NCBI GenBank assembly: GCA_045807845.1
Contig: JBJMGQ010000085.1
Coordinates: 1-51,490, forward strand
Source: Pyrinomonadaceae bacterium
GTDB taxonomy: Bacteria; Acidobacteriota; Blastocatellia; Pyrinomonadales; Pyrinomonadaceae
DNA: 51,490 nt
Direction: 5' to 3'
The translations under genes and the position numbers were made by a program. This document shows, piece after piece, positions 3,575 through 44,347 of this stretch (position 1 is its first letter; each line of letters begins with the position of its first letter). The notes beneath the pieces are model-generated. The model made no database searches. It was not told where the DNA came from and was given only the letters and a program-made list of their open reading frames with translations.

Positions 3575-3622
3575 AGGCGGAAGCCCGACCTTGAGGGAGG
3601 GCGCAAGGGAAGTAGGAAGTAG

Positions 3623-9362: not shown

Positions 9363-9364
9363 AC

Positions 9365-9439: not shown

Positions 9440-9515
9440 CTTCCGGCGCGGCTGTTTCCCATTTGCGAAGAATTAAGGGATAATTGAGGAAAATTTTAAA
9501 AGGAATGATAAAGAA

Positions 9516-26051: not shown

Positions 26052-26156
26052 CTTCTCAGAAAGCTTTTGACAACATCGGGGGCGCGGCCTAGAATCCGCA
26101 CAGTTCTTCACTTCGCCAAACGCACGAGCGCACCAACCGAAGGCGAGACCAGAGAG

Positions 26157-26576: not shown

Positions 26577-26580
26577 GATA

Positions 26581-26660
26581 GTTTTCAGTTTTTTGTTTTC
26601 AGTTTTCAGCAAGACCAAGCTGCTGACTGAAAACTGAAAACTGAAAACTGAAAACTGACT
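26581..26660 (+). repeat. family B (GTTTTCA)n/(TGAAAAC)n hairpin element, copy B1 (nuoA-nuoB spacer)
   Basis: Left arm of GTTTTCA units (26581-26609), loop AAGACCAAGCTG, right arm of 4 TGAAAAC units ending ..GAAAACTGACT directly before the nuoB ATG at 26661. Confidence 0.92.
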
Positions 26661-27314: not shown

Positions 27315-27348
27315 AGTAGGACGGAAGAGAAAAAGTTAGACGGAGAAA

Positions 27349-27383
27349 GCGAGGCTCTCATCAATAACCGATGAGAGCCTCGC
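27349..27383 (+). terminator. hairpin downstream of nuoB
   Basis: GCGAGGCTCTCATC..GATGAGAGCCTCGC, a perfect 14-bp stem. No clear U-tract. Confidence 0.5.
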
Positions 27384-27413
27384 TGCCTCTTATCCTACTG
27401 CACTTCTCTTTTT

Positions 27414-28190
27414 GGTAGTGGCTCAATCGTAAGAGAGAGCCAGAGAATTATTGTAGTCATGCAGAAAGAGTTGCAAACACAGTTCGTGCATCGCATCCGA
27501 CTTCGAAAAAGACAGACTCTTTCTGACGAAGCGCCCGAGCCGCTGCCGCAAAGTATTGTTCCACCGCTCGACATGCGCCGTGAAGCCGGTCTCTTTGCCC
27601 GCCGTGGTATGTTGCTCGGCAGGGATCACCAAAGAGTAAGCTTCCCAAAAGTCGCTGTAGCAATGAGCCGCTCGATACCTGGCCGGTATCTGCTCCCAGA
27701 GTTTTTGACAGCTCGCCCGGCTCCTGTCGCCGACGACATAAGCCACGACTTGTCGGGTGGCACGACACAGCGCGATCCATATCCAGCGCTTGTTGGCGCG
27801 CTTTAAGACGAATGACCAGAGTTCATCCAATTCCAGGGCGATGGCGGCTGGCAGCGTCGGGTCAATCAGTGTCTCGCTCAACTCGGGCAGCGTCGTCTCT
27901 TTTTTTGAGCCAACCGGTGACGGTGTTTCTGGAGACGCCGAAGGTGCGCGACAGGCCGCGCAAGGAACTGCGCTCGTGGTAAGCACGAAGTATCTGTTCC
28001 CGCTCCTCTTCGGTGTAGCCATTGGCTTGCGGGTCGTCACGGCTCATGCGCCCGCAGTCGGAGCAGAGGTAACGCTGCTTGCCGTTTTGCGTCAAGCCGT
28101 TGCGCACGAGCCTGTCGCCGCCGCAGTGATAGCACTTGAGTTTGACCATGCGAGAGAGTCTACAGCCTCTCCCGCGATTGAACCACTACC
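27414..28190 (-). mobile_element. IS1-family insertion sequence (777 bp)
   Basis: Terminal inverted repeats GGTAGTGGCTCAATCG (27414-27429) and CGATTGAACCACTACC (28175-28190), 15/16 complementary. They enclose insA-like and insB-like frames. Confidence 0.85.
27423..28149 (-). CDS. IS1-family transposase InsAB' (requires a -1 frameshift); upstream frame alone = InsA-like zinc-finger/HTH protein (27862..28149)
   Basis: InsA frame: CYHCGGDRLVRNG..YLCSDCG. A7 slippery run on the coding strand (T7 at 27900-27906 on +). A -1 shift joins ..VTGWLKK to KETTLPELSETL..DELWSF..(DDE-type InsB). Confidence 0.85.
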
Positions 28191-28198
28191 CGGAAAGC

Positions 28199-28244
28199 AA
28201 CAAACGAAAACGAGAAGGCCGCAGCTTTGACTGCGGCCTTCTCG
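28199..28244 (-). terminator. rho-independent terminator of prfA (minus strand)
   Basis: CGAGAAGGCCGCAG..CTGCGGCCTTCTCG, followed on the minus strand by TTTTCGTTTGTT. The IS1 end (28190) abuts it. Confidence 0.8.
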
Positions 28245-28292
28245 TTCTTAAGCGTTGCGCGTCCGGCGCTGCTCACTCGTTACTGCTTTGAG

Positions 28293-29369
28293 CTAGGCGG
28301 CGACCGTTTCGGCCTTGAGCTTCTCGGCTTGGTAGTGTGCGACGAGGGCGTTGATGAATTCGTCGAGGGCGCCCTCCATGACGAGGTCGAGCTGGTGGAT
28401 GGTGAGCCCGATGCGATGGTCTGAGACGCGGTTCTCTTTGAAATTGTAGGTGCGAATCTTCTCGGAGCGGTCGCCGGAGCCGACCATCTGCCGGCGCTCG
28501 CTGGCCTGCGCCTCGTGCTGCTTCTGCTCTTCGAGTTCTTGCAGGCGCGCGCGCAAAACCCGCATCGCCTTCTCGCGGTTCTTGATCTGCGACTTCTCAT
28601 CCTGCATCGAGACGACGGTGTTCGTGGGCAGGTGCGTAATGCGCACGGCCGAGTAGGTGGTGTTGACCGACTGGCCGCCCGGCCCCGACGAGCAGAAGGT
28701 GTCGATGCGCAGATCGTTCTGGTTGATCTTCACGTCAACCTCTTCGGCCTCGGGCAGCACGGCGACGGTGACGGCCGAAGTGTGGATGCGCCCCGAAGTC
28801 TCGGTCTGCGGCACGCGCTGGACGCGGTGGACGCCCGACTCGTGCTTGAGCTTCGAATAGACCTTCTCGCCGGAAATTTCGGCGATGGCCTCTTTGAGGC
28901 CGCCTATCCCTGACTCGGACTGGTCGAGAATCTCCATCTTCCAGCCCTGCCGCTCGGCGTAGCGGCCGTACATGCGCAGCATCTCGGCGGCAAAGAGCGT
29001 CGCCTCGTCGCCGCCCGTGCCGGCGCGAATTTCGAGGATGACGTTCTTCTCGTCGTTCGGGTCGCGCGGGAGCAGGAGGACTCGCAGGTCTTCTTCGACC
29101 TTCTCAAGTTGCTCTTCGAGCGTCGCCGTTTCGACGCGCGCCATCTCGCGCATCTCCTCGTCTTCGCCCAAGTCGTAAAGCTCGCGCGCGTCGGAAAGCT
29201 CCGACTTGAGCTGCTTCAACTCGCGATACTTCGAGACTACTTCGCCTAAGCTGCGGTGCTGCTTGTTGAGCTTCCCGTAGTTCGCGGGGTCGGAGTAGAC
29301 CTCGGGCGACGACAGCTCCTCGGTCAGAGCTTCATAGCGCGCTTCGATCTGTTCGAGTTTGTCTAGCAT
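28293..29369 (-). CDS. prfA: peptide chain release factor 1
   Basis: GGQ motif [11 protein letters not shown] and RF1-type recognition loop [17 protein letters not shown]. Confidence 0.95.
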
Positions 29370-29375
29370 GATTGA

Positions 29376-30593
29376 TTACGACAGAGGCGTTAACGCGGCC
29401 TCCTGCGGCTGCGGCTCAAACTTGAGCGATTCTTTGAGCGCGACGATGGCGACTTCGAGCTGCTGGTCGTCGGGCTCCTTCGTCGTGACGTTCTGGAGCC
29501 AGACGCCGGGGCGCGTGATGAGCTTGAAGACGAGGCCGCCCTCCTTCTTCGCGGAGAGCCGTATGATCTCGTAGCTCAGGCCGGCGACGACCGGGATGAG
29601 CGCGACGCGGACGGCGATGTTGTAAGCGAACGAGCTGAAGGCGATGATCGAGAAGAGCACGATGGAGACGAGCATCACGACCATCAGGAAGCTCGTGCCG
29701 CAACGCGGGTGCTGGCGCGGCTGGATGCGCGCGTTCGCGACCGTGAGCGGCAGCCCCGATTCCCAGTTGAAGACCGTCTTGTGCTCCGCGCCGTGATACT
29801 CGAAGACGCGCCGGATGTCTTTCGAGAGTGAGAAACTTGAAATCATCAGAATGAAAATCGCCATCCGGATCATGCCGTCGATGAGGTTGAAGGCGACGTT
29901 CGGCTTCACGGGCTTCAGATAGCCGCGGACGCCGTTGTACGTGCGCGTGTACCAAGGCGCGTCGGCGGCCGTCGCATCGGCGGGCCGTGCGTCGGTGTTC
30001 GGCGCGGCTTCAGTCGCGGGGCGCTTGATGTCGCCGGCCGCCTGTTGCTGCGCGGCGGGCACTTCGCCCGCGCTACGGTCGGCCCAGCCCATGCCGATGA
30101 AGAGGGCGTTGGTGAGCATGAGCGGCGCGACGACGAAGAGCAGGATGTTGAAGAGCATCGCGAAGGCGATGGAGCCGAAGGCCGCGGCCGAGCCGCGTTT
30201 CAACTCGTCCTCGGGGCGCTTCTGCGTCGGGATGGGGAAGAGGCCGGGGACGCCGCCGGTGATGCCTGCGAAGTCGCCCTCGCCTTCGACGACCGCGGGC
30301 GTGAGTGCGACCGCTTCGGCCGTCTCAGTCTCCTCGACGAAGGCTTCGGCGGCCGAGTAGTTGAGCGCCTTGATGCCGAGCGCCATCGACTGCACGAGCA
30401 CGGCGGCGCCGCGCAGCACGGGGAGCTTGAGCGCGGGATACTTGTCGCTCCACTTCGGCAAGGAAGCACCCGTGTGCGTGATGGTGCCGTCGGGGCGGCG
30501 CACCGCGATGGCGTACGCGGAGGGCGTGCGCATCATCACGCCTTCGATGACGGCTTGGCCGCCGACAATCAGGTCTTTTTCGCTGGCGCTCAC
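29376..30593 (-). CDS. DUF1385-family membrane protein (prfA-associated) with Ala/Gly/Glu-rich insertions
   Basis: N-terminal [12 protein letters not shown] and C-terminal [14 protein letters not shown] motifs are typical of DUF1385. Adjacent to prfA, as is common. Confidence 0.85.
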
Positions 30594-30764
30594 GGGAAAA
30601 TCCTTTCGGGTAAAGTGAAACGCCGACCTTCGGTGCGGCTTTGCTTTCGTTACCCCTTGAGGGTAAGAAAGGCTGGGGCCGCGGGCGCGAAAGGTCGGCG
30701 TCCGGGTTCTGGGTAGCTAATACTGGCGGCGTCGAATCGGTGTCATAGACGCTGGCCGAACGGC

Positions 30765-31004
30765 TCAGGCGTTGGCGCCTTCGGTCGCGGCCGGAGCTTC
30801 GGTCTTCTTGCCGTAGCGCTTGTTGAAGCGGTCAACGCGGCCAGCCGTGTCGATCAGCTTCTGCTTGCCCGTGAAGAACGGGTGACACTCCGAGCAGATT
30901 TCAAGGTGGAGGTCGTCCTTCTTGGTCGAGCGCGTCTGGAAGTTGTTGCCGCAGGCGCAGTGGACGGTGACCTCGTGGTAGTCGGGATGAATTCCTTGCT
31001 TCAT
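30765..31004 (-). CDS. rpmE: 50S ribosomal protein L31 (Zn-ribbon type)
   Basis: [41 protein letters not shown]. Confidence 0.95.
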
Positions 31005-31054
31005 TTCTCTTTCCTCTCTGATAGCGGGCCGCGAGCGGCCTCAAACAAAGCCCC

Positions 31055-31084
31055 ATCTTACCGACGCTTGTCGCGCATCGTCAA
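31055..31084 (-). promoter_or_regulatory. possible promoter of rpmE
   Basis: On the minus strand: TTGACG, 18-nt spacer, TAAGAT. About 50 nt upstream of the rpmE ATG. Confidence 0.35.
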
Positions 31085-31328
31085 GTTGTGCAAGGACTTG
31101 GATGCACGACGCGGCCTCCGGATTGCCCGCGCGTGGGCACAACGAGGGGCGCGGCACTAGTTTGTTGACAGGCGTACAAATCGCGTGTTACAAACGCGCT
31201 GAACACACCTTTGCAGCTTTTCCGTTAGAGTACCTTGAAAGTTATACAAGCCGCACTCATAGACGAGTAGGGACTCAAGTTGTTCCCCGAGCTACGTCCT
31301 TACACGGGAGTTGAACCTTTAGGACGCG

Positions 31329-32579
31329 ATGACGGACGAACCCAAAAACCCTCCGAAATCCGACGCAACCTCACCGCCTGAAAGCGACGAAACACGCCGC
31401 GCGGCAGACACATCCCCGGCAGCAGATGAGGCCGCGGGCGCGCTGCCGCCCCCGCCCGACGCCGAAGAGCCGCGACCCACGCCCGAGAGTCAGGCGGCTC
31501 TGACCGGCAAAGCGCCTTCGGGCAGCTCGACTTCAGGCACGACCGTCCCAGCCTCGACAGAGAGACCCAAACCACCGGCCGCGCCTCCCTCCAACGAGAC
31601 ACCCGAGGAGAAGAAGGCGCGACTCGAACGCATCATCGCCGAGGCGAAGGCGAAGAAGGAGGCCGCCGCCGCTGCCGCCGCGCAGGCCGAGGCCGGAGGG
31701 GGCGGGGAAGCGCCGCCGCCGGGCGGCAAGTCGCCCGAGGTCGGCGACCCTTTGAAGAGTCCTTCGCAGGCAGACCTCGAACGCGCCGCCAAGATCGCAG
31801 AGGCCAAGGCGCGCGCCGCCGCCGCAAAGGAGGAGGCCGCCGCGAAGTCGCCCGCCGCGGCTCCCGGCGCAGGGAAGCCCGCCCCTCCGGCCGCGGCCGG
31901 GGCCGGCATTCCGAAGCCTCCCGTCAAGAAGAAGGACGAAGGGCCGAAGCCGGTCGAGTCGCCCGAACATCCTCTGTTCAAGCGCTTGCGCGACCGCTTC
32001 GGCGACGCTGTTGAGGGCGCTTTCACTTTCGTCAACCAGCTCTCGATTCACGTCAAGGCCGAAGTCGTCATGGAAGTCTGCATGGCTTTGCGCGACGACG
32101 CGGAGACGCCGTTCGACTATCTGTCCGACCTGACCTGCGTCCACTGGCCCGAGCGCGAAGAGGCGCCGTTCGAGGTCGTCTACAACCTCTACTCCATCTC
32201 GAAGAACGAGCGCGTGCGCGTGAAGGCCGCGGCGGGCGAGGCGGGGCTGGACAGCGTCACGGGCGTCTGGCCGACGGCCAACTGGATGGAGCGCGAGGCT
32301 TACGATCTGTTCGGCGTGACCTTCAACAATCATCCAGACCTGCGGCGTCTGCTCCTGCCGAAAGATTGGGACGGCCACCCGCTGAGGAAGGACTACCCGC
32401 TGGAGTTCATGGAGAACGAGTGGACGACGCGCCACCTGCCGGAGTTCACCGAAGTCCAGCGCGAGCAGTTGGCGCAGCGGCGCGCATACGGCCTCGAAAT
32501 CCTCCAGACGCCCGACGAGCGGCGCATCCGCGAAATCTTCCGCGACGGGCGCGACCCGTTGCCGAAGGAGCACAAGTAG
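31329..32579 (+). CDS. nuoC: NADH-quinone oxidoreductase subunit C with a ~210-aa Pro/Ala/Lys/Glu-rich N-terminal extension
   Basis: The conserved NuoC core starts near 31966 (HPLFKRLRDRFG..WPTANWMEREAYDLFGVTFNNHPDLRRLLLP..HPLRKDYPL). The upstream 212 codons are low-complexity but in frame and GC3-rich. Confidence 0.85.
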   Translation: MTDEPKNPPKSDATSPPESDETRRAADTSPAADEAAGALPPPPDAEEPRPTPESQAALTGKAPSGSSTSGTTVPASTERPKPPAAPPSNETPEEKKARLERIIAEAKAKKEAAAAAAAQAEAGGGGEAPPPGGKSPEVGDPLKSPSQADLERAAKIAEAKARAAAAKEEAAAKSPAAAPGAGKPAPPAAAGAGIPKPPVKKKDEGPKPVESPEHPLFKRLRDRFGDAVEGAFTFVNQLSIHVKAEVVMEVCMALRDDAETPFDYLSDLTCVHWPEREEAPFEVVYNLYSISKNERVRVKAAAGEAGLDSVTGVWPTANWMEREAYDLFGVTFNNHPDLRRLLLPKDWDGHPLRKDYPLEFMENEWTTRHLPEFTEVQREQLAQRRAYGLEILQTPDERRIREIFRDGRDPLPKEHK

Positions 32580-32585
32580 ACGCAA

Positions 32586-32834
32586 ATGCACCCGAAAGAC
32601 CTCGCCGCCAAGTACGAAGTGAAGGTCTTCGACAGCCCCTCGGCCGCCGAAGCCGCAGGCTTCCGACTCGGCCAACGCATGAGCCCACGCAACGTCTGGA
32701 ACCGTGACTCCGCGGCCTCCGCCATCCTCTTCGACCTGCTCGGCAAGCGGAAACGCGGCGAAGTCTCCGAGGTCGCCCTCGTGCTTGAGACGGCCAGCGT
32801 CGCGGGAGCCTTCAAGGGAAACGATGAAGTATGA
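32586..32834 (+). CDS. small hypothetical protein embedded between nuoC and nuoD
   Basis: 82-aa ORF with strongly GC3-biased codons, starting 4 nt after the nuoC stop. VFDSPSAAEAAGFRLGQRMSP weakly recalls the Ada N-terminal Zn-binding domain pattern, but without the cysteines (from memory, unverified). Confidence 0.5.
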   Translation: MHPKDLAAKYEVKVFDSPSAAEAAGFRLGQRMSPRNVWNRDSAASAILFDLLGKRKRGEVSEVALVLETASVAGAFKGNDEV

Positions 32835-32888
32835 ACGCTGAATGATGAACTGAAGGCAGCTTGTCTTACAGTTCGACGTTCAGCGTTC
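32833..32888. repeat. family A heptad-hairpin element, copy A4 (more diverged)
   Basis: GAACGCTGAATGATGAACTG (32833-32852) pairs with CAGTTCGACGTTCAGCGTTC (32869-32888), 17/20. Lies between the 82-aa ORF stop and the nuoD start. Confidence 0.8.
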
Positions 32889-32907
32889 CGAGTCCATAGT
32901 TCAAACC

Positions 32908-34041
32908 ATGCATCAAGTAGAAGTCGCCACCACGCAGGAGACCTTACTCGACAACCCCGAGATGGTCTTGAACATGGGGCCGCAGCACCCTTCGACCCAC
33001 GGCGTGCTGCGCGTCATCCTGCGCCTCGACGGCGAGACCGTCATCGACCTCGACTGCGACATCGGCTTCCTCCATCGCGGCATGGAGAAGATTGCCGAGA
33101 ATCGCCTCTACCCGATGATCGCTCCTTACTGGGACAGGCTCGACTACATCGCGGCGGTCTCGAACGGGCTGGTCTGGGTCGAGACCGTCGAGCAGATGAT
33201 GGGGCTCGAAATCCCTCGGCGCGCGCACTACATCCGCACCATCCTCACGGAGCTGAACCGCATCTCTTCGCATCTGCTCTGGCTCGCCACGCACGCGCTC
33301 GACATCGGCGCCTTCACCGTCCTGCTGCACGCCTTGCGCGAGCGCGAGGAGATTCTGAAGATATTCGAGCAGCAGTTCGGCGCGCGCCTCACCTGCCACG
33401 CGTGGCGCATCGGCGGCATGCCGAACGACGCCTACGAAGGCTTTACCGAGGACGTGCAGCAGTTCGTCGATAACTTCCCGAATCGCATCGACCAGTACGA
33501 GACGCTGCTCTCGGAGAATCGCATCTGGCTCGGGCGCACCGTGGGCATCGGCGTCATCTCGGCCGCCGACGCCATCGCCATCGGGCTCTCGGGGCCGTCC
33601 CTGCGCGGCTCGGGCGTCGCGTGGGACATACGCAAAAGCCGTCCGTATGCGGCCTACGGCGAACTCGACTTCGACGTGCCCGTCGGCGAGAACGGCGACA
33701 CGTATGACCGCTACCTCGTCCGCATCGAAGAGATGCGCCAGTCGCGCCGCATCGTCCAGCAGGCTTTGAAGCAGATGCCTGACGGCCCCGTCAACGCCAA
33801 GATTCCGAAGGTGCTCAAGCCCCCGGCCGGCGACTACTATCATTCCATCGAAGGCCCGAAGGGCGAGATCGGTTGTTACTTAGTCAGCGACGGCACGAGC
33901 CGCCCGTATCGCGTCCGCGTCCGCCCGCCGTGCCTCATCAACCTACAGGCGCTGCGGCAGATGTGCGTCGGCCACCTCGTCGCCGACGTGGTCGCCATCA
34001 TCGGCACGCTCGACATCGTGCTCGGAGAGATAGACCGTTAG
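32908..34041 (+). CDS. nuoD: NADH-quinone oxidoreductase subunit D
   Basis: [22 protein letters not shown], and [23 protein letters not shown] at the C-terminus. Confidence 0.95.
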
Positions 34042-34116
34042 TTTTCGGTTTTTAGTTTTCAGTTTTCAGCAAGACCAAGCTGCCGACTGAAAACCGAAAA
34101 CTGAAAACTGAAAACT
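34041..34116 (+). repeat. family B hairpin element, copy B2 (nuoD-cupin spacer)
   Basis: Nearly identical to B1, including the loop GCAAGACCAAGCTGC. Begins at the nuoD stop and ends ..GAAAACT directly before the ATG at 34117. Confidence 0.92.
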
Positions 34117-34587
34117 ATGAATGTCATTCGCCTACCCGTGCAGAAGATGACGCGCGAGGCTTTCGCGCCGTACGGGATCGTGCTCGACCGGCGCGGCTCC
34201 GTGGACGTGGACATTGGGATGGGCGTGCCGAGCATCACGGGCGCGACGGCCGACCCGCGCCCCTTCAAGTTCGACTTCATGGCGCGCCACCGCCACACGA
34301 TGCAGGTCTTCTCGCCGCTCGCGGGCTCGCAGGCCGTCATCTGCGTGGCGCCGCCCAACGGGCTCGACGCGCCCGACGTGGACAGGGTCGTCGCCTTTCT
34401 CGTCGAAGGCCGTCTGCCTTACGCATACTTCCGCGGCACCTGGCACACGCCGCCCTTCGCCACCGGCGAGTGGTACTCCTACCTCGTCGTAGACCGCAAG
34501 GGCACGCTCGACGAAGACCTTGAGCTGGTGGACATCAGGGCCGCGCGCGGCTGCACGTTCGAGATTGACCTGTCAACTGACGGCTGA
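34117..34587 (+). CDS. ureidoglycolate lyase (AllA) family cupin-fold protein embedded between nuoD and nuoH
   Basis: 156 aa. REAFAPYGIV, ARHRHTMQVFSPL, AVICVAP, AFLVEG..YFRGTWHTPPF and YLVVDRKG follow the AllA/PF04115 pattern (E. coli AllA: EAFSAYGDVI, ERHPLGTQAFIPM, NVWHHPLF, TIDRGG). Confidence 0.72.
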   Translation: MNVIRLPVQKMTREAFAPYGIVLDRRGSVDVDIGMGVPSITGATADPRPFKFDFMARHRHTMQVFSPLAGSQAVICVAPPNGLDAPDVDRVVAFLVEGRLPYAYFRGTWHTPPFATGEWYSYLVVDRKGTLDEDLELVDIRAARGCTFEIDLSTDG

Positions 34588-34599
34588 ACGCTTGAAACC

Positions 34600-35949
34600 A
34601 TGTTCGCACTCTTCGCACCGCCCAACTTCCTCGACGACCTCCTGCTGAGATTCTTCGGCGAGGAGACGGTCAACTACGTCGTCTGGCCCTTCATACAGAT
34701 CGGCGCGGTCATCACGCTGATCGCCGTGTGGGCGCTCTACGCGAGTTATCTGGAGCGGAAGATTTCCGCGTTCATGCAGGCGCGGCTGGGGCCGATGCGC
34801 GTCGGCAAGTGGGGGCTGTTGCAGCCCATCGCCGACGCCGTCAAGCTCCTCACCAAAGAAGACCTCGTGCCGGAGAAGGCCGACCCTTACATCTTCCGTT
34901 ACGCGCCCTACATCTCGGTTGCGGCCACGTTCATCACCTTCGCGGTCGTGCCGTTCGCGCCGAACTGGGGCGTGATTACGGACGTGAACATCGGCCTGCT
35001 CTTCGTCCTCTCGATCTCTTCGGTGGGCGTCCTCGCCCTCATCCTCGCCGGTTGGTCTTCGAACTCGAAGTACGCGCTGCTCGGGGGCTTGCGCTCGTCG
35101 GCGCAGATGGTCTCGTACGAAGTCTCGATGGGGCTCTCGCTCATCGGCGCGCTGATGTTCGCGCGGACGCTTAGCTTGTCTGGCATCACCGTCGCGCAGG
35201 CGTCCGACTCGGTCTTCCCCGGCTTCATCATCTACCAGCCGCTCGCCTTCGTCGTCTTCCTCATCAGCGGCATCGCCGAGAACAACCGCGCGCCCTTCGA
35301 TCTGCCCGAGGCCGAGTCGGAACTCGTCGCAGGCTTTCACACTGAGTACTCGGGGATGCGCTGGTCGCTCTTCTTCATGGCCGAGTATGCGGCGATGGTG
35401 GTGGTCGCGGCCGTGGCGACGACCGTCTTTCTCGGTGGCTGGTACTTCCCCGGCGTGCTCCGGCTCGCGGGCGGCTACGGCAACCTGTACATCTTCCTGA
35501 GCCTCGTCGTCTTCATCGTCAAGCTGGCGCTGCTGCTCTATCTCTACTTCTGGCTGCGGTGGACGTTCCCGCGCTACCGCTATGACCAGTTGATGGACTT
35601 GGGTTGGAAGTGGATGATTCCGGCCGCGCTGCTGAACATCGTGTGGACGGGCGTGACGGTCTTCACCTTGCAGGCGCTCGACGGCTGGCAGGGTTTAGAC
35701 ACGATTGAGCCGCGCCGGCGGGGCGGCCCGCTGCTCGAAGCCGGGCTTAACCTGACGGGGACGGGGAAAGTCGTCGCCATCGTCTTCGGGCTGTTGGGGC
35801 TGCTCATCGCGGGGCTCTTCCTCGGCTACCTCAACCGCCACTCGCGCGACTTCAATCTCAAGAAGCAGCGGCGCCAGATACGGCTCGTGGACGTGCCGAA
35901 GGGCGCGCCCGCGGTTGCGACGACCGCAGCGGCGGCCGACAACGCATAA
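34600..35949 (+). CDS. nuoH: NADH-quinone oxidoreductase subunit H with a ~90-aa C-terminal extension containing an extra TM helix
   Basis: ERKISAFMQARLGPMRVG, LQPIADAVKLLTKED, APFDLPEAESELVAGFHTEYSGMRW. The extension runs from about 35680. Confidence 0.93.
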   Translation: MFALFAPPNFLDDLLLRFFGEETVNYVVWPFIQIGAVITLIAVWALYASYLERKISAFMQARLGPMRVGKWGLLQPIADAVKLLTKEDLVPEKADPYIFRYAPYISVAATFITFAVVPFAPNWGVITDVNIGLLFVLSISSVGVLALILAGWSSNSKYALLGGLRSSAQMVSYEVSMGLSLIGALMFARTLSLSGITVAQASDSVFPGFIIYQPLAFVVFLISGIAENNRAPFDLPEAESELVAGFHTEYSGMRWSLFFMAEYAAMVVVAAVATTVFLGGWYFPGVLRLAGGYGNLYIFLSLVVFIVKLALLLYLYFWLRWTFPRYRYDQLMDLGWKWMIPAALLNIVWTGVTVFTLQALDGWQGLDTIEPRRRGGPLLEAGLNLTGTGKVVAIVFGLLGLLIAGLFLGYLNRHSRDFNLKKQRRQIRLVDVPKGAPAVATTAAAADNA

Positions 35950-35977
35950 GTCACCGAAGGGTTGTAAGAGAGGTCGT

Positions 35978-36511
35978 ATGTCTTTAGTCAAAGTTCCGCG
36001 GGCCGGTTGGGGAGAGAGGCTGAAGCGCTTCTTTCTGGCGGACGTGTTCAAGGGGATGTGGCTGACGTTGAAGTATAACGTCGGCGCGTTGACGGACAAG
36101 AATTCCGTCAGCGGCTACGGCATCTACACCGAGCAGTATCCTTCCGTCAGGCCGCAGGTGGCGCCGCGCTTCCACGGCGCGCCGCGGCTGAACATGGATC
36201 CCGAGACGCACGAGTCTCTGTGCATCGCCTGCAACCTCTGTGCGCTGGCCTGCCCCGAGGACTGCATCGACGTGATCGCGATGGACATCGAGATGACGGT
36301 CGGCGGCAAGCCGCGCAAGAAGAAGGTGCTCGACGAGTTCATCTTCGACACTTCGCGCTGCATGTTCTGCGCGCTCTGTCAGGAGGCGTGCCCCACGGCC
36401 TGCCTTGAGCTGACGCAGGAGTTCGAGCTCGCCACCTACTCGCGCGCGGGCTTCGTCTGGAACCGCGAGATGCTTGAGCAGGGGCGCGAGTCGCGCAAGT
36501 TTGAAGCTTGA
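35978..36511 (+). CDS. nuoI: NADH-quinone oxidoreductase subunit I
   Basis: Two 4Fe-4S motifs, CIACNLCALACP and CMFCALCQEACP. Start trimmed to the ATG at 35978 with GAGAGG upstream. Confidence 0.93.
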   Translation: MSLVKVPRAGWGERLKRFFLADVFKGMWLTLKYNVGALTDKNSVSGYGIYTEQYPSVRPQVAPRFHGAPRLNMDPETHESLCIACNLCALACPEDCIDVIAMDIEMTVGGKPRKKKVLDEFIFDTSRCMFCALCQEACPTACLELTQEFELATYSRAGFVWNREMLEQGRESRKFEA

Positions 36512-36515
36512 AGCG

Positions 36516-36617
36516 GTTTTCAGTTTTCAGTTTTTAGTTTTCAGTAAGAGCGGCAGTTACGCGAACGCTCCGAGAGGAAACGACAGGCTGAAAACTGAAA
36601 ACTGAAAACTGAAAACT
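36516..36617 (+). repeat. family B hairpin element, copy B3 (nuoI-nuoJ spacer)
   Basis: GTTTTCAGTTTTCAGTTTTTAGTTTTCAG (36516-36544), a 43-nt loop, then CTGAAAACTGAAAACTGAAAACTGAAAACT (36588-36617) directly before the nuoJ ATG. Confidence 0.92.
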
Positions 36618-37316
36618 ATGGTTCTGCAAGGCTGGGAAAGCGTCTTCTTCTGGGTCTTCGCGCTCTCCGCGCTGGTGGCGGGGCTGCTGACGGTGATGGC
36701 GCGCAACGCCGTCCACTCGGCGTTGTTCCTCATCTCGACGCTCGTGTCGGTGGCGGCGCTCTTCGTGCTCCTCGGCGCGGAGTTCATCGCGGGCGTGCAG
36801 ATACTCGTCTACGTCGGCGGCGTGATGGTGCTCTTCCTGTTCGTCATCATGCTCGTCAACGTTGCGGCCGAAGAGCGTGGGGGCGAAGAGCTGTTCAATC
36901 GCACGGGGCAGGTAACGGCGGCCGTCTGCTTCGTCGCGCTCCTCGTCCTTGGATTCTTCTACGCCATCAACCAGTCGGCGGGGCACTTCGTGCCCTCCAA
37001 CAACGAACAGACCATCATGCAGCGCGACACGGAGAGCGCGCGCATGCACAACGCCGCCACGGGCGTCTCGAAGATTTCGGAGGACACGCAGCGCGTGGGC
37101 GCGAGCCTCTATCGCTACGGCGCGCTGCCGTTCGAGATTGCGAGCGTGCTGCTGCTGGTCGCCATCGTCGGCTCTGTGCTGCTGGCGCGCACGTCGAAGC
37201 AGGAGCTGGCCGCCGACGACGTTGACCCGCAGGTCATCACGGAGCTGAGCGCCGTGGGCGAACTGACCCCGGCCGAGATAGAGGCCGCCACGCGCGCACA
37301 CGCCGCCGAGGTCTGA
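36618..37316 (+). CDS. nuoJ: NADH-quinone oxidoreductase subunit J
   Basis: VMARNAVHSALFLISTLVSVAALFVLLGAEFIAGVQILVYVGGVMVLFLFVIML is typical of NuoJ. Confidence 0.87.
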   Translation: MVLQGWESVFFWVFALSALVAGLLTVMARNAVHSALFLISTLVSVAALFVLLGAEFIAGVQILVYVGGVMVLFLFVIMLVNVAAEERGGEELFNRTGQVTAAVCFVALLVLGFFYAINQSAGHFVPSNNEQTIMQRDTESARMHNAATGVSKISEDTQRVGASLYRYGALPFEIASVLLLVAIVGSVLLARTSKQELAADDVDPQVITELSAVGELTPAEIEAATRAHAAEV

Positions 37317-37327
37317 AGATTCAGAGC

Positions 37328-37729
37328 ATGACTATGAACAGCCTTTTCACACCGGCGCTCGCGCTCTTGCAGGGGGGCGCCCTCGACAACGTGAAGCAGG
37401 GGATTCAGCACCCCGACCTCTCGAAGTTCCTCATCATCGGGGCGCTGCTCTTCAGCATCGGCGTCGCGGGCGTGCTGACGCGACGCAACATCATCATCAT
37501 CTTCATGTCCGTCGAGCTGATACTGAACGCGGCGAATCTGAACTTCATCGTCTTCTCGCGCTACTTTCAGGAGACCGGAGGCATCAACGCCGTCGCCGGA
37601 CAGGTCTTCACGGTCTTCATCATCGTCGTCGCCGCCGCCGAAGCGGCCATCGGCCTCGGCCTCGTCATCGCGCTCTACCGCAACCGCGAGACGATCTTCG
37701 TGGACAAGATTGACCTCTTGAAGTGGTGA
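37328..37729 (+). CDS. nuoK: NADH-quinone oxidoreductase subunit K (with a ~30-aa N-terminal extension)
   Basis: FSIGVAGVLTRRNIIIIFMSVELILNAANLNFI..AAAEAAIGLGLVIALYRN. Confidence 0.9.
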   Translation: MTMNSLFTPALALLQGGALDNVKQGIQHPDLSKFLIIGALLFSIGVAGVLTRRNIIIIFMSVELILNAANLNFIVFSRYFQETGGINAVAGQVFTVFIIVVAAAEAAIGLGLVIALYRNRETIFVDKIDLLKW

Positions 37730-37735
37730 GGGACA

Positions 37736-37821
37736 GTTTTCAGTTTTCAGTTCTCAGTGTTCAGCTAAGACAAGGAGCTGAATTCTGCGGACTGAAAACT
37801 GAAAACTGAAAACTGAAAACT
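37736..37821 (+). repeat. family B hairpin element, copy B4 (nuoK-nuoL spacer)
   Basis: GTTTTCAGTTTTCAGTTCTCAGTGTTCAG (37736-37764), loop with TAAGACAAGGAGCTG, and four TGAAAAC units ending ..GAAAACT directly before the nuoL ATG at 37822. Confidence 0.92.
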
Positions 37822-40527
37822 ATGCATCGGTACATCTGGCTCGTCCCACTCCTGCCGCTGTTGGGCGCGGCCGTCAACGGGCTGTTGGGTCGCCGGTTCC
37901 GTTTTTCGGAGCGTGTGGTCGGCTCGATAGGCGTCGGCTCGGTGGCGCTCGCGTTCCTCATCAGCCTCGCGGCGGTCATCTCGTACGGCGCGAACGTGTG
38001 GCCCAATCCTTACGTGACGAGCGAGGACGGCGCGTTCTCCTACACGTGGATTCCGGGCGGCGCGGTCGAGCTGACCGAGGGACTGGAAGCGCGCGCCGAC
38101 GTTGAGGCCGGCAGGCTTGCGGACGAAGAGGCTGCGCGCAAGGGGAAAGAGGAGGGCATCGCGTCGGGCGGTTACGTGCTCGTCGCCAAGCCCCATGTGC
38201 CGGAGCGGCGCGGCGTCGGCGCCGTGCTCGATGTGGAGTGGAGTTATCAGCTCGACGCGCTCTCTTCCATCTTCATGCTCGTCGTGACGGGTGTGGGCTT
38301 GTGCATCTTCATCTTCGCGACGGGGTACATGCACGGCGACAAGGGTTTCTATCGCTTCTTCGCCTACCTCGGCCTCTTCATGTTCTCGATGCTCATCCTC
38401 GTGATGGGCTCGAACTTCATGATGATGTTCGTCGGGTGGGAGGGCGTGGGGCTCTGCTCCTACCTGCTCATCGGTTACTACTTCGACCGACGGGAGGCGG
38501 GCGACGCGTCGCGCAAGGCGTTCATCACGAATCGCATCGGCGACTTCGGCTTCGCGCTCGCCGTCTTCGGCGTCATCGCCACCTTCGGCTCGACGCAGTA
38601 CACCGCCGTCTTCGAGCAGGCGCGCGCCTTTCCCATCGAGACGCTGGCGGGCCCCGTCACTTGGGGCGTGATGTCCTGGATTGCGCTCGGCCTCTTCATC
38701 GGCGCATGCGGCAAGTCGGCGCAGATTCCTTTGTACGTCTGGCTGCCCGACGCGATGGCGGGCCCGACGCCTGTCTCTGCGCTCATCCACGCGGCGACGA
38801 TGGTGACGGCCGGGCTCTACATGTTGACGCGCTGCAACGTCATCTTTCAGCACTCGCAGGGAATGATGACAATCGTCGCGGTCGTCGGCGCCCTCACCGC
38901 TCTGTTCGCCGCGACCATCGGCATCACGCAGAACGACATCAAGAAGGTTCTCGCTTACTCGACCGTCTCGCAGCTCGGCTTCATGTTCCTCGCGTGCGGC
39001 GTGGGCGCGTTCGTCGTCGGCATCTTCCACGTGATGACGCACGCCTTCTTCAAGGCGCTGATGTTCCTCGGCGCGGGCTCGGTCATCCACGCGATGCATC
39101 ACGAGCAGGACATGCGCCGGATGGGCGGCCTGCGAAAGTACATGCCGAAGACCTATTGGACGTTCTTCGCGGGCTGGCTCGCCATCTGCGGCATCTTCCC
39201 GTTCGCGGGCTTCTGGTCGAAGGACGAGATACTTTGGAACGCGGCCTCGACCAGCTACGTCCCTTCGGGCTGGCTGCTCTGGCTCATCGCGACCATCTCC
39301 GCCACCTGCACGGCCTTCTACATGACGCGGCTGATGGCTTTGACCTTCTGGGGCAAGGAGCGCTTCCTCGAAGTGCCTGCGGGCGGGCAGGCCGACGAGG
39401 CGCACGCTTTAGCGTATGCCGAAGGTGAGACGACGCACGCGGCCTCGACGCCTTCGGTCGGCGACCGGCCGCACCACGGCCCCGAGGAGAGGGTCGGCGC
39501 GGCGCACGCGTTAGAGTCGGCCGCGGCCGGAGAGCCCGAAGGCGCCGACGCGCGCGGCCACGACGTACACGACCATCACGACCCCGGCGAACCCGCGGGC
39601 CACGGCCAACACCCGCACGGCTCTGTTCTGCCGCACGAGTCGCCGCCGTCGATGTGGGTGCCGCTGGCGGTGCTGGCGGTGCTGGCGACTATCGGCGGCT
39701 TCGTCGGCATCAGCCCCGCCTTCGCGGGCGGCGCGCACGTCGGCGGCAAGCTGAATATTGTTAACTGGCTCGACCCAATCATCTGGAATCCTTTGACGGG
39801 TCAGTTCGGCAAGGAGTCGCACGCAGAGACCTCCGCGCTCGAAGCGCACGACAAGGAGACGGCCGGGCGCGAGGCCGTCAAGCAGGAGGGCAGCCACGCC
39901 GCGCCGCTCCCGACGCGCACCGACGTAATACACGACGCCTCAATCGAGCACGGCGCGCATCTCGCGCCCTACGGCGACGAGGGACGCTTCAATCTCGCGC
40001 ACGCCGTGCAGAACGTGCTCGGGACTCACGAGCGGGCCGAGTGGTTCTTCATCATCTTCTCGCTCGTCGTCGCGGGCTTCGGCATCTGGCTCGGCTTCCT
40101 CTTCTACGTCTGGCGGCCGGAGCTGCCGGGGCTGTGGGCGCAGAGGCTCGCGCCGCTCTATCGCGCGAGCTTCAACAAGTACTGGGTTGACGAGTTGTAC
40201 GGCATGCTCTTCACGCGGCGGACGATGGACGCGGCGCGCGGCGTCTACGCGACCGACTCGCGCATCATCGACGGCGCGGTCAACGGCGTGGCTTGGCTCA
40301 CGCGCCAGCTCAGCCGGTTCACGGGCAACACCGACCGGCTTGTCGTAGACGGCGCGGTCAATGGCGTCGCGGGCTTCATCAAGCTCTTGATGTCGCCGCT
40401 GCTGCGCGCCGCGCAGACGGGCGTGACGGCCAACTACGCGCTCGCCATGTTGCTCGGGCTCGTCGCGGCCATCGGCCTCTTCTTCGGGCCGGATATTTGG
40501 GCCAGTCTGACGAGCGCCTTCAGATAG
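37822..40527 (+). CDS. nuoL: NADH-quinone oxidoreductase subunit L, unusually long (901 aa) with three inserted segments
   Basis: Core motifs: FVGWEGVGLCSYLLIGYYF, GKSAQIPLYVWLPDAMAGPTPVSALIHAATMVTAG, SQLGFMF. Insertions at about 38075-38245, 39370-39645 (His-rich) and 39810-39985. Confidence 0.93.
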   Translation: MHRYIWLVPLLPLLGAAVNGLLGRRFRFSERVVGSIGVGSVALAFLISLAAVISYGANVWPNPYVTSEDGAFSYTWIPGGAVELTEGLEARADVEAGRLADEEAARKGKEEGIASGGYVLVAKPHVPERRGVGAVLDVEWSYQLDALSSIFMLVVTGVGLCIFIFATGYMHGDKGFYRFFAYLGLFMFSMLILVMGSNFMMMFVGWEGVGLCSYLLIGYYFDRREAGDASRKAFITNRIGDFGFALAVFGVIATFGSTQYTAVFEQARAFPIETLAGPVTWGVMSWIALGLFIGACGKSAQIPLYVWLPDAMAGPTPVSALIHAATMVTAGLYMLTRCNVIFQHSQGMMTIVAVVGALTALFAATIGITQNDIKKVLAYSTVSQLGFMFLACGVGAFVVGIFHVMTHAFFKALMFLGAGSVIHAMHHEQDMRRMGGLRKYMPKTYWTFFAGWLAICGIFPFAGFWSKDEILWNAASTSYVPSGWLLWLIATISATCTAFYMTRLMALTFWGKERFLEVPAGGQADEAHALAYAEGETTHAASTPSVGDRPHHGPEERVGAAHALESAAAGEPEGADARGHDVHDHHDPGEPAGHGQHPHGSVLPHESPPSMWVPLAVLAVLATIGGFVGISPAFAGGAHVGGKLNIVNWLDPIIWNPLTGQFGKESHAETSALEAHDKETAGREAVKQEGSHAAPLPTRTDVIHDASIEHGAHLAPYGDEGRFNLAHAVQNVLGTHERAEWFFIIFSLVVAGFGIWLGFLFYVWRPELPGLWAQRLAPLYRASFNKYWVDELYGMLFTRRTMDAARGVYATDSRIIDGAVNGVAWLTRQLSRFTGNTDRLVVDGAVNGVAGFIKLLMSPLLRAAQTGVTANYALAMLLGLVAAIGLFFGPDIWASLTSAFR

Positions 40528-40586
40528 CTTCTTCGCCTTCGCCTTCTAAGTTCGCGGCGGGCCGAGTCTCGCCTTCGGGGTGCACA

Positions 40587-42290
40587 GTGAAAATTCCCTA
40601 TCTCCTTTCAATCATCACGTGGCTGCCGGCGGTCGGCGCGATTATCGTCCTGTTCCTTTTTAAGAAGGGGCAGGAGGGCGCCATCAAGCGTTTCGCGACC
40701 GCGTGGTTCGCGCTCGACTTCGTGGTCTCGCTCGCGCTTCTCGGTTATGACCGCGGCCTCGGCGGGTTTCAGTTCCTCGAAGACGCGCAGTGGATTCCGG
40801 TCATCGGGGCGCGCTACCAGATGGCGGCCGACGGCGTGGCCGTGCTGCTGCTACTGCTGACGACGCTGCTGGGCTGGATCGCGTCGCTCTCTTCGTGGGA
40901 GTACATCCAGAAGCGCGAGAAGGAGTACTACGTTCTGCTGCTGCTGTTGCAGACCTCGGTGCTCGGCGTCTTCTGCTCGGCCGACCTCTTCCTCTTCTTC
41001 CTCTTCTTCGAAGTCTCGCTCGTGCCGATGTACTTCCTCATCGGCATCTGGGGCGGCGAGCGCCGTCTCTATGCGGCCATCAAGTTCTTTCTCTACACGC
41101 TGGCGGGCTCGGTGGGGCTCCTGCTCGGCATGATTAAGATGTACTTTCTGACGCAGGACGCGTCACTCGTCGGCGCCATCGCGCCCGCGACGAAGGCGCT
41201 CGTGGCGGGCAACGATGCCGCGCTGGCGATGCTCAACAACAGCTTCGCCGCGGCGCAGAGCACGGGCACCGGCACCTTCAACATCATGTTCATGCAGTCG
41301 CTCGGCTCCGCTATCCCGATGGGGACGATGCAGGTGCTTCTCTTCTTCGCCTTCGCCATCGGCTTCGCCATCAAGGTGCCGATGTGGCCCTTCCACACGT
41401 GGCTCCCCGATGCGCACGTCGAGGCGCCGACGGCAGGCTCCGTCATCCTCGCAGGCATTCTGCTCAAGCTCGGCACATACGGTTTCTACCGCTTCAACCT
41501 GCCCTTCTTTCCGAAGGCCGCCATCGACCAGAGCTACTTCTGGAACGGTGCGTTCGGCGTGCGTAACGTGATGGTCGTCCTCGCCATCATCAGCATCATC
41601 TACGGCGCGCTGGCCGCGATGTACTTCGTCGTCAAGCGCGACGGCGACGTGAAGAAGCTGGTGGCCTACTCGTCGGTCTCTTCGATGGGCGTGGTGATGC
41701 TCGGGCTCTTCTCTTTGAACCCGAACGGCCTGAACGGCGCCGTGCTCCACATGATCAACCACGGCATCTACTCGGGCGCGCTCTTCCTACTTGTAGGCAT
41801 CATCTACGAGCGGCGGCACACGCGCGCCGTCAACGAGTTCGGCGGGCTCTCGCACGTGATGCCCGGTTACGCGGCGGTCTTTCTCGCGATGGCGATGACG
41901 GCCATCGGGCTGCCGCTGCTCTGCGTCTTCATCTCGGAGTTCCTCTCCATGCGGGGCGCGTTCGAGGCGAATCCGCAGTGGGCGGGCTGGGCGGCGCTGG
42001 GGATTATTCTGAACGCGGGTTACATGCTCTGGCTCTATCAACGGATGTTCTTCGGCAACATCGAGAACCCGAAGAACGAGAAGCTCCACGACCTGAAGGG
42101 GCGCGAGTGGGCCTACATGATTCCGCTCTTAATCATGTCGCTCTGGATCGGCGTCTATCCCAAGCCCTTCATCGACTTCATTCAGAAGCCCGTCGCCGCC
42201 CTCGTCAAACACGTCCGCCCCGACTATCCCGTCTCGCCCGCCGCGCCCATGCGCGCGCCGCAGACGGCGGAGCGGCAGGTCAACAAGTAA
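40587..42290 (+). CDS. nuoM: NADH-quinone oxidoreductase subunit M
   Basis: FFEVSLVPMYFLIGIWGG, PFHTWLPDAHVEAPTAGSVILAGILLKLG. Start set to the in-frame GTG at 40587 (VKIPYLLSIITWLP); the upstream part of the ORF is Arg-rich noise. Confidence 0.9.
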   Translation: MKIPYLLSIITWLPAVGAIIVLFLFKKGQEGAIKRFATAWFALDFVVSLALLGYDRGLGGFQFLEDAQWIPVIGARYQMAADGVAVLLLLLTTLLGWIASLSSWEYIQKREKEYYVLLLLLQTSVLGVFCSADLFLFFLFFEVSLVPMYFLIGIWGGERRLYAAIKFFLYTLAGSVGLLLGMIKMYFLTQDASLVGAIAPATKALVAGNDAALAMLNNSFAAAQSTGTGTFNIMFMQSLGSAIPMGTMQVLLFFAFAIGFAIKVPMWPFHTWLPDAHVEAPTAGSVILAGILLKLGTYGFYRFNLPFFPKAAIDQSYFWNGAFGVRNVMVVLAIISIIYGALAAMYFVVKRDGDVKKLVAYSSVSSMGVVMLGLFSLNPNGLNGAVLHMINHGIYSGALFLLVGIIYERRHTRAVNEFGGLSHVMPGYAAVFLAMAMTAIGLPLLCVFISEFLSMRGAFEANPQWAGWAALGIILNAGYMLWLYQRMFFGNIENPKNEKLHDLKGREWAYMIPLLIMSLWIGVYPKPFIDFIQKPVAALVKHVRPDYPVSPAAPMRAPQTAERQVNK

Positions 42291-42306
42291 AAGAAAGGAG
42301 ACTCGT

Positions 42307-42681
42307 ATGACTTTGCGAATGAGACTTCCGGCCGCCGCGCTGGCGACGCTGATGCTTCTGACGGCATTCGGCACGCCGGCCGCGAACGCGGCTGAGACGC
42401 GCCTGCGCTTCTCGCACGGGCACGCGAGCAAGGTGGTGCGCGGCACCGGCGGTGCGGATTACGTGTTTCGCGCCAACACCGGCCAGAAACTGGTCGTGAT
42501 TCTGACGGCCCCGCGCGACACGATCTTCAGCCTGCAATCCCCCAACGGAACGAACATGGCGGGCGAAGGCGGAAACGGGCGCGCCGAGTTCCAGTTAGAG
42601 GAGACGGGCGACTACCATCTCTCCGTCTTCAGTCGCAGCGGCAAGCGCCGGCACTACACGCTCTCCGTCAGCATTCTCTGA
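42307..42681 (+). CDS. secreted small beta-sandwich protein (pre-peptidase C-terminal/PPC-like pattern) embedded between nuoM and nuoN
   Basis: 124 aa with strong AGGAG 7 nt upstream and a signal peptide (LATLMLLTAFGTPAANAAE). ADYVFRANTGQKLVVIL..DTIFSLQSPNG..GDYHLSVFS..YTLSVSI fits the PPC-domain pattern (from memory). Confidence 0.65.
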   Translation: MTLRMRLPAAALATLMLLTAFGTPAANAAETRLRFSHGHASKVVRGTGGADYVFRANTGQKLVVILTAPRDTIFSLQSPNGTNMAGEGGNGRAEFQLEETGDYHLSVFSRSGKRRHYTLSVSIL

Positions 42682-42724
42682 GCGGGTGGGGCGCGCGCCC
42701 CGCCCCGAAAGAAGCACGAATCCA

Positions 42725-44347
<1,623 letters not shown>

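Follow-up and report, generated by a model that had tools for sequence, protein, structure and literature searches.

The intervening sequence (IVS) in the 23S rRNA of Coxiella burnetii has a 28-bp inverted-repeat stem made of GACAGAT heptamers, the copy number of which varies between strains; the stem encloses an open reading frame (ORF) for S23p (PF05635), and RNase III cuts within it (PMC4990558). Direct heptamers with the unit TAACTGA are known from marine Beggiatoaceae, cyanobacteria and Bacteroidetes, where most arrays stop 1 nt short of a start codon that has no ribosome-binding site (RBS); one inverted set occurs among 170 TAACTGA-type sets in BOGUAY, and the form AAACTGA gives only 4 doublets there (MacGregor 2015, PMC4679880). 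Heptamers near start codons have also been described in Nostoc (bioRxiv 10.1101/2022.06.06.494920). Here we analyzed a stretch of 51,490 nt (contig JBJMGQ010000085.1, ‘the window’ throughout), which NuoD homologues place in the Pyrinomonadaceae (Acidobacteriota) and in which four spacers of the nuo operon are filled by hairpins with one arm of GTTTTCA and one arm of TGAAAAC heptads, named B1 to B4. We regard B1–B4 with considerable confidence as a dispersed, fast-turnover element of the IVS-type class; that they are solo, ORF-less copies of a heptad-stem cassette of this type, which colonizes compact operon junctions, we consider probable, with less certainty.

With the 23S rRNA IVSs of Coxiella and Leptospira, B1–B4 share the long terminal inverted repeats (TIRs) and a stem of ∼28 bp composed of tandem heptamers. 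The ORF of these IVSs is optional and belongs to the same family as the one in cassettes of relatives of the window, ORF decay is seen in both, and the cassettes occupy the same type of site as B1–B4. In contrast to the IVSs, B1–B4 are without an ORF, lie in intercistronic mRNA spacers and not in a 23S helix, and use TGAAAAC instead of GACAGAT. The likeness to the TAACTGA repeats lies in forward tandem 7-mers that stop one to a few nucleotides before ATGs without an RBS and in a patchy occurrence across phyla. In another register the B1–B4 unit reads AAACTGA, which is one base from TAACTGA and not identical to it; moreover, TAACTGA arrays are direct only, whereas each array of B1–B4 is paired with an inverted array and gives a hairpin, and no PF05635 association has been reported for TAACTGA repeats.

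Other dispersed palindromes resemble B1–B4 more distantly. Correia/NEMIS hairpins in mRNA are proposed or shown RNase III substrates, and ERIC elements are proposed or shown to expose RNase E sites (PMC2229807). Like B1–B4 these are non-autonomous intergenic or intercistronic palindromes that fold in mRNA, and they are the nearest analogue for the mode of action that B1–B4 would have; however, no sequence or heptad structure is common to them and B1–B4, and Correia elements have defined TIRs, a TA duplication and promoter/IHF motifs, whereas a scan found no promoter-like motif within B1–B4. The REP, BIME and REPIN palindromes of enterobacteria and pseudomonads stand between co-directional genes, can stabilize the upstream mRNA, are family-specific and turn over rapidly. 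REPs are GC-rich, 20–40 nt long and mobilized by RAYT transposases, in contrast to the AT-rich tandem-heptad arms of 29–32 nt in B1–B4.

Start-proximal heptamer repeats, the abundance of heptanucleotide simple sequence repeats (SSRs) and IVS elements are known already. An initial annotation of the window, made from its sequence alone, did not recognize the hairpins as a described family. This was too broad as regards the heptads, since TAACTGA heptamers and the heptad-stem IVS are published, but it stands for the paired hairpin in mRNA spacers, which was not found by a full-text literature search that covers subscription journals poorly, so that an earlier description is possible. Clade-wide occupancy of fixed junctions with replacement of the heptad, and a link of the hairpins or of TGAAAAC arrays to PF05635, were likewise not in the literature searched. 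The intercistronic hairpin form across a whole clade appears to be undescribed.

Anatomy of the hairpins B1–B4

All four hairpins lie on the forward strand and follow one plan, an element of ∼76–102 nt in which a loop separates a 5′ arm of about four GTTTTCA units from a 3′ arm of four TGAAAAC units. B1 (26581–26660) fills the spacer between nuoA and nuoB: the nuoA stop codon (26574–26576) is followed by a 4-nt gap to the first heptad at 26581, the 5′ arm (26580–26609) holds four GTTTTCA units, one of them in the form GTTTTTT, the loop (26610–26626) reads CAAGACCAAGCTGCTGA, and the 3′ arm of four TGAAAAC units (26627–26656) is followed by a tail to 26660 and by the nuoB ATG at 26661. Its stem has Watson–Crick pairs at 28 of 30 positions. 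B2 (34039–34117), between nuoD and a cupin gene, has the stem 34039–34069/34087–34117, which extends from the nuoD stop codon TAG (34039–34041) to the first base of the cupin ATG, the A at 34117; the first heptad begins on the G of this TAG, and the stem can pair TAG with a CTA whose A is that of the ATG. The loops of B1 and B2 differ by a single base and the identity over arms and loop is 95%, so that we take the two to be copies of one element. B3 (36516–36617), in the nuoI–nuoJ spacer, starts after a 4-nt gap behind the nuoI stop codon, has the arms 36516–36544 and 36588–36616 and a loop of 43 nt, and is followed by the nuoJ ATG at 36618. At the end of nuoI we noted a tandem TTGAAGC TTGAAGC (36501–36514); its second copy contains the stop codon of nuoI and delimits the B3 insertion on the left relative to the related locus L202. 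B4 (37733–37823), in the nuoK–nuoL spacer, has the arms 37733–37764 and 37792–37823, begins 6 nt after the upstream stop codon and reaches into the nuoL ATG at 37822; its inner stem is re-paired as GTTCAGCT/AGCTGAAT. The four start-proximal copies filling nuo spacers, as located by the initial annotation, are thereby confirmed.

The hairpins abut the codons on either side, with 0–6 nt from the stop codon to the 5′ foot and 0–5 nt from the 3′ foot to the ATG. The last TGAAAAC unit ends 1 nt before the ATG in B2–B4 and 5 nt before it in B1; the junction is GAAAACT directly followed by ATG in B2, B3 and B4, and GAAAACTGACT followed by ATG in B1, where the units are succeeded by TGACT and then ATG. 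Each stem has 28–29 Watson–Crick pairs out of 29–32 positions. The repeat period is 7, with 4.3–4.7 copies per arm and a lag-7 identity of 0.83–0.95. No TGAAAAC array in the window is without a complementary 5′ arm, and the two-unit motif TGAAAACTGAAAAC (up to two mismatches) matches 24 times in the window, always within B1–B4, where 0.06 matches are expected. These arms of 29–32 nt are AT-rich in a genome of 64% GC. In all four copies the 3′, start-proximal arm is the more perfect one, with one deviating unit against seven in the 5′ arms. RNA folding gave −39.8, −37.2, −50.1 and −45.3 kcal/mol for B1, B2, B3 and B4, respectively, with z-scores of −7.0 to −8.8 and no shuffled sequence equalling any of them. 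Rfam returned no match in the window at the gathering threshold; at a relaxed E-value only sub-threshold eukaryotic miRNA-precursor hairpins appeared, which reflects a generic hairpin shape.

Occupancy and turnover in relatives, dispersal in other genomes

We compared the window with 80 related metagenomic nuo loci, counting spacers of 30–900 nt and scoring as hairpins those with at least 18 Watson–Crick pairs. A hairpin was present in 136 of 161 spacers, at median distances of 4 nt from the stop codon to the hairpin and 7.5 nt from the hairpin to the start codon. Sorted by junction, hairpins occupied 31/41 spacers from nuoC to nuoD, 13/16 from nuoD to nuoH, 3/3 from nuoD to the cupin gene, 53/59 from nuoI to nuoJ and 35/47 from nuoK to nuoL, and 0/6 from nuoJ to nuoK. 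Identity within the arms was 0.64 at lag 7 and ∼0.25 at other lags, and lag 7 was the best lag in 98 of the 136 hairpins. The TGAAAAC repeat itself was found in only 1 of the 80 loci. The other units include ATTTTTG, AATGATG, GGTCTTT, CAGTGGT and ATTGCCG, CACAGAT-type heptads are present at the nuoD–nuoH junction of relatives, and the range goes up to GGGGCCG, for example in GGGGCCG/CGGCCCC arms. With such GC-rich heptads at orthologous sites, an A-rich leader is not an essential feature, and the role that the initial annotation had rested on the A-rich sequence before the start codon was abandoned. The start-proximal arm was the more regular one in 53 hairpins of the relatives, the other arm in 29 (p = 0.01), and perfect arrays numbered 8 versus 0.

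Turnover is seen at single junctions of close relatives. Between nuoD and the cupin gene the heptad is GTTTTCA in the window, GTGATAA in L201, ATTTTTG in L121 and GTGAATG in L202, although NuoD of these loci is 98%, 96% and 95% identical to that of the window, respectively. Unlike this junction, the nuoC–nuoD spacer carries an orthologous hairpin in the window and in L201; it belongs to a further heptad family of the window, family A, lies at 32820–32901 on the forward strand and ends 6 nt before the nuoD ATG (32908). Some junctions are empty: in L202 nuoA and nuoB are 14 nt apart and nuoI and nuoJ 5 nt (TAAAAACTATG), and in L147 and L181 the nuoK–nuoL junction is TGAaATG. Relative to L202, B3 is a clean insertion of 101 nt (36508–36608). 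These junctions indicate that the ancestral junctions were compact, and because of this compactness an insert lies against the stop codon on one side and the start codon on the other.

Composite hairpins were observed between nuoI and nuoJ in L159 and L186/L187 and between nuoC and nuoD in L143, where the arms of one heptad family stand around those of another (e.g. CTTTGTG outside, CAGTGGT inside), which suggests nested insertion or replacement at one site. The nuoK–nuoL hairpin of L129 (13206–13417) has ∼10 units per arm (GGTCTTT/AAAGACC variants), 64 Watson–Crick pairs and a folding energy of −116 kcal/mol, and its unit variants are partly mirrored across the arms.

A pattern scan for (GAAAACY)3GAAAAC over 185,579 species genomes yielded at least 120 stretches (L001–L120), and the following figures hold among the matches listed. 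The matched genomes belong to Acidobacteriota (many Pyrinomonadaceae, Chloracidobacterium), Planctomycetota, Verrucomicrobiota, Poribacteria, delta-proteobacteria, Bacteroidales and others, and 40 of 135 arrays, including the four of the window, have a GTTTTCA arm upstream. Proximity to ORFs was scored with a script that is noisy in GC-rich DNA and places 16% of random positions near an ORF start, so that its figures are read only against that baseline: outside the window the start of a long ORF lay within 12 nt of 21 of the 36 TGAAAAC hairpins (p = 8e-9), and direct-only arrays were weakly enriched near ORF starts (25/95, p = 0.006). The preference of the hairpins for start codons, which the initial annotation had noticed in the window, thus extends to other genomes. 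The genes that they separate elsewhere are co-directional but unrelated, for example a preceding gene and valS, molybdopterin oxidoreductase alpha/beta, nusB/cheA, asnS/carA and ribH-like/hisH. We therefore rejected a function specific to nuo, and the link to this operon drawn in the initial annotation was not supported. An element in another Pyrinomonadaceae metagenome-assembled genome (MAG), L005, is 87% identical to B4 over 91 nt, arms and loop included. In L113 (∼4970–4996), a MAG labelled delta-proteobacterium, we noted a (GTTTTCR)4 array in the nuoA–nuoB spacer, where the complementary arm downstream is merely degenerate.

The cassette link and competing explanations

In 29 of the 80 related nuo loci an ORF of ∼120–140 aa belonging to PF05635 (23S_rRNA_IVP)/TIGR02436 (four helix bundle protein) lies inside heptad arms, mostly between nuoI and nuoJ and sometimes between nuoA and nuoB. 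In one family of these cassettes nuoJ takes its ATG from the 3′ arm (…AATCGGCAATG), and an ATGA overlap closes the cassette ORF. In a second family the arms share the 16-mer TCATCGTTCAGCGTTC with family A hairpins of the window, and the hairpin at 916–996 shares it with IVP-carrying cassettes of L135, L138, L144 and L172, where it lies in the 3′ arm. The cassettes form a series of decay, from full ones of ∼500 nt through a truncated ORF within intact arms (L143, nuoI–nuoJ) to a 16-nt scar of two ATTGCCG units (L161, nuoI–nuoJ). Cassettes with the heptads of B1–B4 occur between metK and ahcY in Verrucomicrobia and Planctomycetes, where the order is stop codon, (GTTTTCA)4, a short loop, (TGAAAAC)3–4 and the ATG of the IVP gene, and then (TGAAAAC-like)3–4 and the ATG of ahcY. 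The IVP stop codon is a TGA of the array, and the junction in L203, GAAAACT followed by ATG, is identical to that of B2–B4. GTTTTCA/TGAAAAC heptads and a PF05635 ORF were found together in L025, L203 and L217; among the listed matches L001–L120, an IVP gene stands beside the TGAAAAC arrays in L025 only. If such a metK–ahcY cassette lost what lies between its two direct arrays, precisely a B-type hairpin abutting the host ATG would be left.

A full cassette has a small four-helix-bundle gene (PF05635/TIGR02436) with an Avd-like product placed between heptad arrays of the same kind, an architecture that is also that of the 23S rRNA IVSs; PF05635 is similar to Avd, which serves diversity-generating retroelements as accessory protein (PMC10053308). 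The cassettes lodge where the stop and start codons of co-directional genes lie close together, and so fill the spacer and abut the ATG; they are gained, lost and replaced rapidly. In the nuo transcript, if the genes are co-transcribed, each of B1–B4 would fold into a double-stranded RNA stem of ∼28–32 bp that brings the upstream stop codon beside the downstream ATG. The likeliest consequence is that RNase III would cleave this stem, on the precedent of IVS stems and Correia elements, cutting the nuo mRNA at A/B, D/cupin, I/J and K/L and leaving a short leader without a Shine–Dalgarno (SD) sequence. In addition or instead, ribosomes that finish the upstream gene may melt the lower part of the stem and start again at the neighbouring ATG. 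By analogy we give cleavage of the B1–B4 stems by RNase III not quite an even chance, and among the roles suggested in the initial annotation RNase III-type processing has the best precedent. An adaptive role of B1–B4 in nuo regulation seems doubtful to us.

Several observations weigh against the reading of B1–B4 as solo cassette copies. A hidden Markov model built from 33 cassette ORFs found no PF05635 gene in the window and the loops of B1–B4 measure only 17–43 nt, so that they can only be ORF-less derivatives; the connection between TGAAAAC and the IVP gene consists essentially of one cassette lineage, that of metK–ahcY. The analysis identified neither a transposase nor a target-site duplication nor any means of mobility: of the traits of miniature inverted-repeat transposable elements, TIRs and dispersal are present, and for a target duplication the comparison of B3 with its empty site offers an ambiguous 4-nt TGAA boundary repeat. 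Furthermore, occupancy of the same junctions across the clade and the more regular start-proximal arm hint at constraint, which a purely selfish view does not account for.

In an alternative which we consider unlikely, although less so than those that follow, the stem is a translational gate that hides the downstream start codon until a terminating ribosome, a helicase or a chaperone opens its base, which would keep the subunits stoichiometric. The position of the feet, 0–6 nt from the stop codon and 0–5 nt from the ATG, agrees with it, as do the same junctions being filled across the clade, the hairpin-plus-ATG arrangement that also precedes the IVP gene within cassettes, and the low probability of being unpaired at positions −20 to −1 (0.02–0.12 in B1–B3, 0.43 in B4). 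No SD sequence is available to the ribosome there: in the relatives an SD core lies between hairpin and ATG in 1 of 85 gaps and in 2 of 12 short spacers without hairpin. As SD sequences are scarce at both kinds of junction, the clade initiates nuo translation largely without them. The initial annotation was right that nuoB, the cupin gene, nuoJ and nuoL have none, but this does not distinguish them, as nuoD, nuoH and nuoK lack one too. A split RBS, in which folding would bring an upstream SD sequence to the ATG, was rejected, an SD core being found upstream of 7/85 stems compared with 8–9/85 in coding controls.

If pairing in RNA were selected, G·U-compatible mismatches should outnumber A·C mismatches on the sense strand. 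We found no excess, and hence no evidence of such selection: G·T and A·C counts were 157 and 164 before and 106 and 120 after restriction to de-duplicated heptad-type stems, and 4 and 3 in B1–B4. The orthologous family A stem between nuoC and nuoD has decayed without compensation and is now 76% complementary. On both grounds the complementarity looks like a property of the DNA rather than of the RNA, for which a recent insertion could be the reason; so could, as a conjecture of ours, template switching that corrects the palindrome. These results speak against the gate, and so do the close relatives without any hairpin (nuoA–nuoB and nuoI–nuoJ in L202, nuoK–nuoL in L147 and L181); the empty sites, the different heptads at orthologous sites and the equal mismatch counts also leave a conserved riboregulator unsupported.

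It is improbable, in our view, that a protein with affinity for single-stranded nucleic acid (S1, a cold-shock protein or the IVP protein) uses the array beside the ATG as its platform and there recruits or blocks ribosomes, with the 5′ arm as an anti-sequence. The idea of a binding platform is the hypothesis of MacGregor for TAACTGA repeats (PMC4679880), from which the present unit differs by one base and arrays of which mostly end 1 nt before RBS-less starts. It gains from the occurrence of TGAAAAC arrays beside ATGs in several phyla, from the weak enrichment of direct-only arrays at ORF starts among the matches listed and from the more perfect 3′ arm both in the window and in the relatives; this modest start-proximal bias keeps alive the idea that the array beside the ATG matters, as MacGregor proposed for TAACTGA. 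However, 56 of the 95 direct-only arrays listed are without a nearby ORF start, and the heptads of orthologous junctions are wholly different in sequence and composition, so that no single sequence-specific factor could serve them all.

Still less probable is an origin as mutational by-product, in which 7-nt slippage would expand the junction sequence and template switching would make the palindrome, site by site. The native nuoI–nuoJ junction of L202, TAAAAAC-T-ATG, does amount to one unit, the TTGAAGC duplication (36501–36514) lies at the B3 boundary, heptad copy number differs among Coxiella strains (PMC4990558) and, according to Mrazek 2007 as cited in PMC4679880, heptanucleotide repeats are the commonest long SSR class in many bacterial genomes. 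Independent expansion does not fit the 95% identity of B1 and B2 in arms and loop at unlinked junctions, the match of B4 to the L005 element across arms and loop, or the heptad families common to hairpins and ORF-carrying cassettes.

That these strong hairpins within an operon are intrinsic terminators, attenuators or RNA thermometers is hardly credible. None of the stems runs into a U-tract, the next bases being (T)ATG, or TGACTATG in B1. A scan for terminators and internal promoters gave nothing for B1, B3 and B4 and for B2 no more than a trivial site of 6 bp within its 5′ arm. The genuine terminator-like hairpins of the window (12646, 15111 and 28197) have no heptads and are located at the 3′ ends of genes, those at 12646 and 15111 between convergent genes. 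In the energy model 27–35 bp persist at 80°C, which also disposes of the thermometer-like gate of the initial annotation.

Other elements of the window and significance of the heptad hairpins

The window carries further heptad hairpins with other units that the initial annotation of B1–B4 did not mention (916–996, 3623–3677, 9361–9443, 32820–32901 and 25936–26058). Those of family A have the units AACGATG/CATCGTT, also GAACGCT, and are found at junctions of co-directional genes, including nuoC–nuoD. Besides the nuoC–nuoD copy described above, family A comprises a hairpin on the reverse strand between two minus-strand genes (916–996) and, on the forward strand, one at 3623–3677 with GAACGCG GAACGAT units and one at 9361–9443, which begins on the stop codon of a forward gene ending at 9362 and likewise carries the 16-mer TCATCGTTCAGCGTTC. 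The hairpin at 3623–3677 follows an ORF (3071–3638) of 15/30-nt tandem repeats (AAGGGCGGCGCGAAG, 12.7 copies) that encodes a Lys/Ala/Gly-rich, histone-H1-like repeat protein. A hairpin of CAGTAGG units with a 75-nt loop (25936–26058, forward strand) stands just upstream of nuoA and of a near-consensus promoter-like site, TTGACA-17-TAGAAT (26067–26095, 11/12 positions). The TTG at 26067, the listed start of the nuoA ORF, is probably the −35 box of this site, and the true nuoA start would lie farther downstream. At 6034–6261 tandem repeats with a period of 21 nt (3 × 7) form several long inverted repeats with arms of 39–45 nt; the whole may be a composite or nested heptad element. At 23289–23365, just past a 1114-aa ORF ending at 23275, lies a perfect inverted repeat of 30 bp (TTAACCACCGCAGACACAGAGACACGGCTT) without clear heptad periodicity.

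Gene calls backed by Pfam comprise nuoA, B, C and D, the Ureidogly_lyase-like cupin and nuoH, I, J, K, L, M and N. The layout of the nuo region (26067–44347) is unusual, as an inverted block of prfA and DUF1385 splits nuoA–nuoB from nuoC–nuoD, the cupin gene and nuoH-I-J-K-L-M-N. The cupin gene between nuoD and nuoH is also kept in the closest relatives. The nuoC ORF has 416 aa, with the 30-kDa domain from residue 240, and the nuoL ORF 901 aa; before nuoN lies a 124-aa ORF (42307–42681) with a strong SD sequence and no Pfam match. No rRNA was found in the window.

The origin of bacterial rRNA IVSs and the role of the S23p/PF05635 protein have been open since ∼1990, and so has the meaning of the start-codon heptamers in cyanobacteria and Beggiatoaceae. 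A far-reaching proposal, improbable in its entirety, would join these questions: heptad-armed PF05635 cassettes would be a widespread, unrecognized class of intercistronic mobile elements with their own stop/start coupling module, the 23S IVSs would be a special case of them, and solo hairpins would be what remains where a cassette has been. The arrays would be bound or remodelled by the Avd-like protein, core operons such as nuo would through their solo hairpins belong to a post-transcriptional regulon answering to the cassette protein, and the heptamers of Beggiatoaceae and cyanobacteria would be remnants of the same system.

At the defined junctions of an essential operon, one building plan occurs family-wide in three forms, as full cassette, decaying cassette and solo hairpin, with gain, loss and replacement at the level of strains. 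The Pyrinomonadaceae nuo operon is a system suited to studying the movement of these elements, their possible neutralization by RNase III or by terminating ribosomes, the question whether the Avd-like protein recognizes heptad arrays, and the initiation of translation where a 30-bp stem ends and no SD sequence is present. In annotation work it means that heptad hairpins in these genomes are not to be taken for terminators or riboswitch-like regulators.

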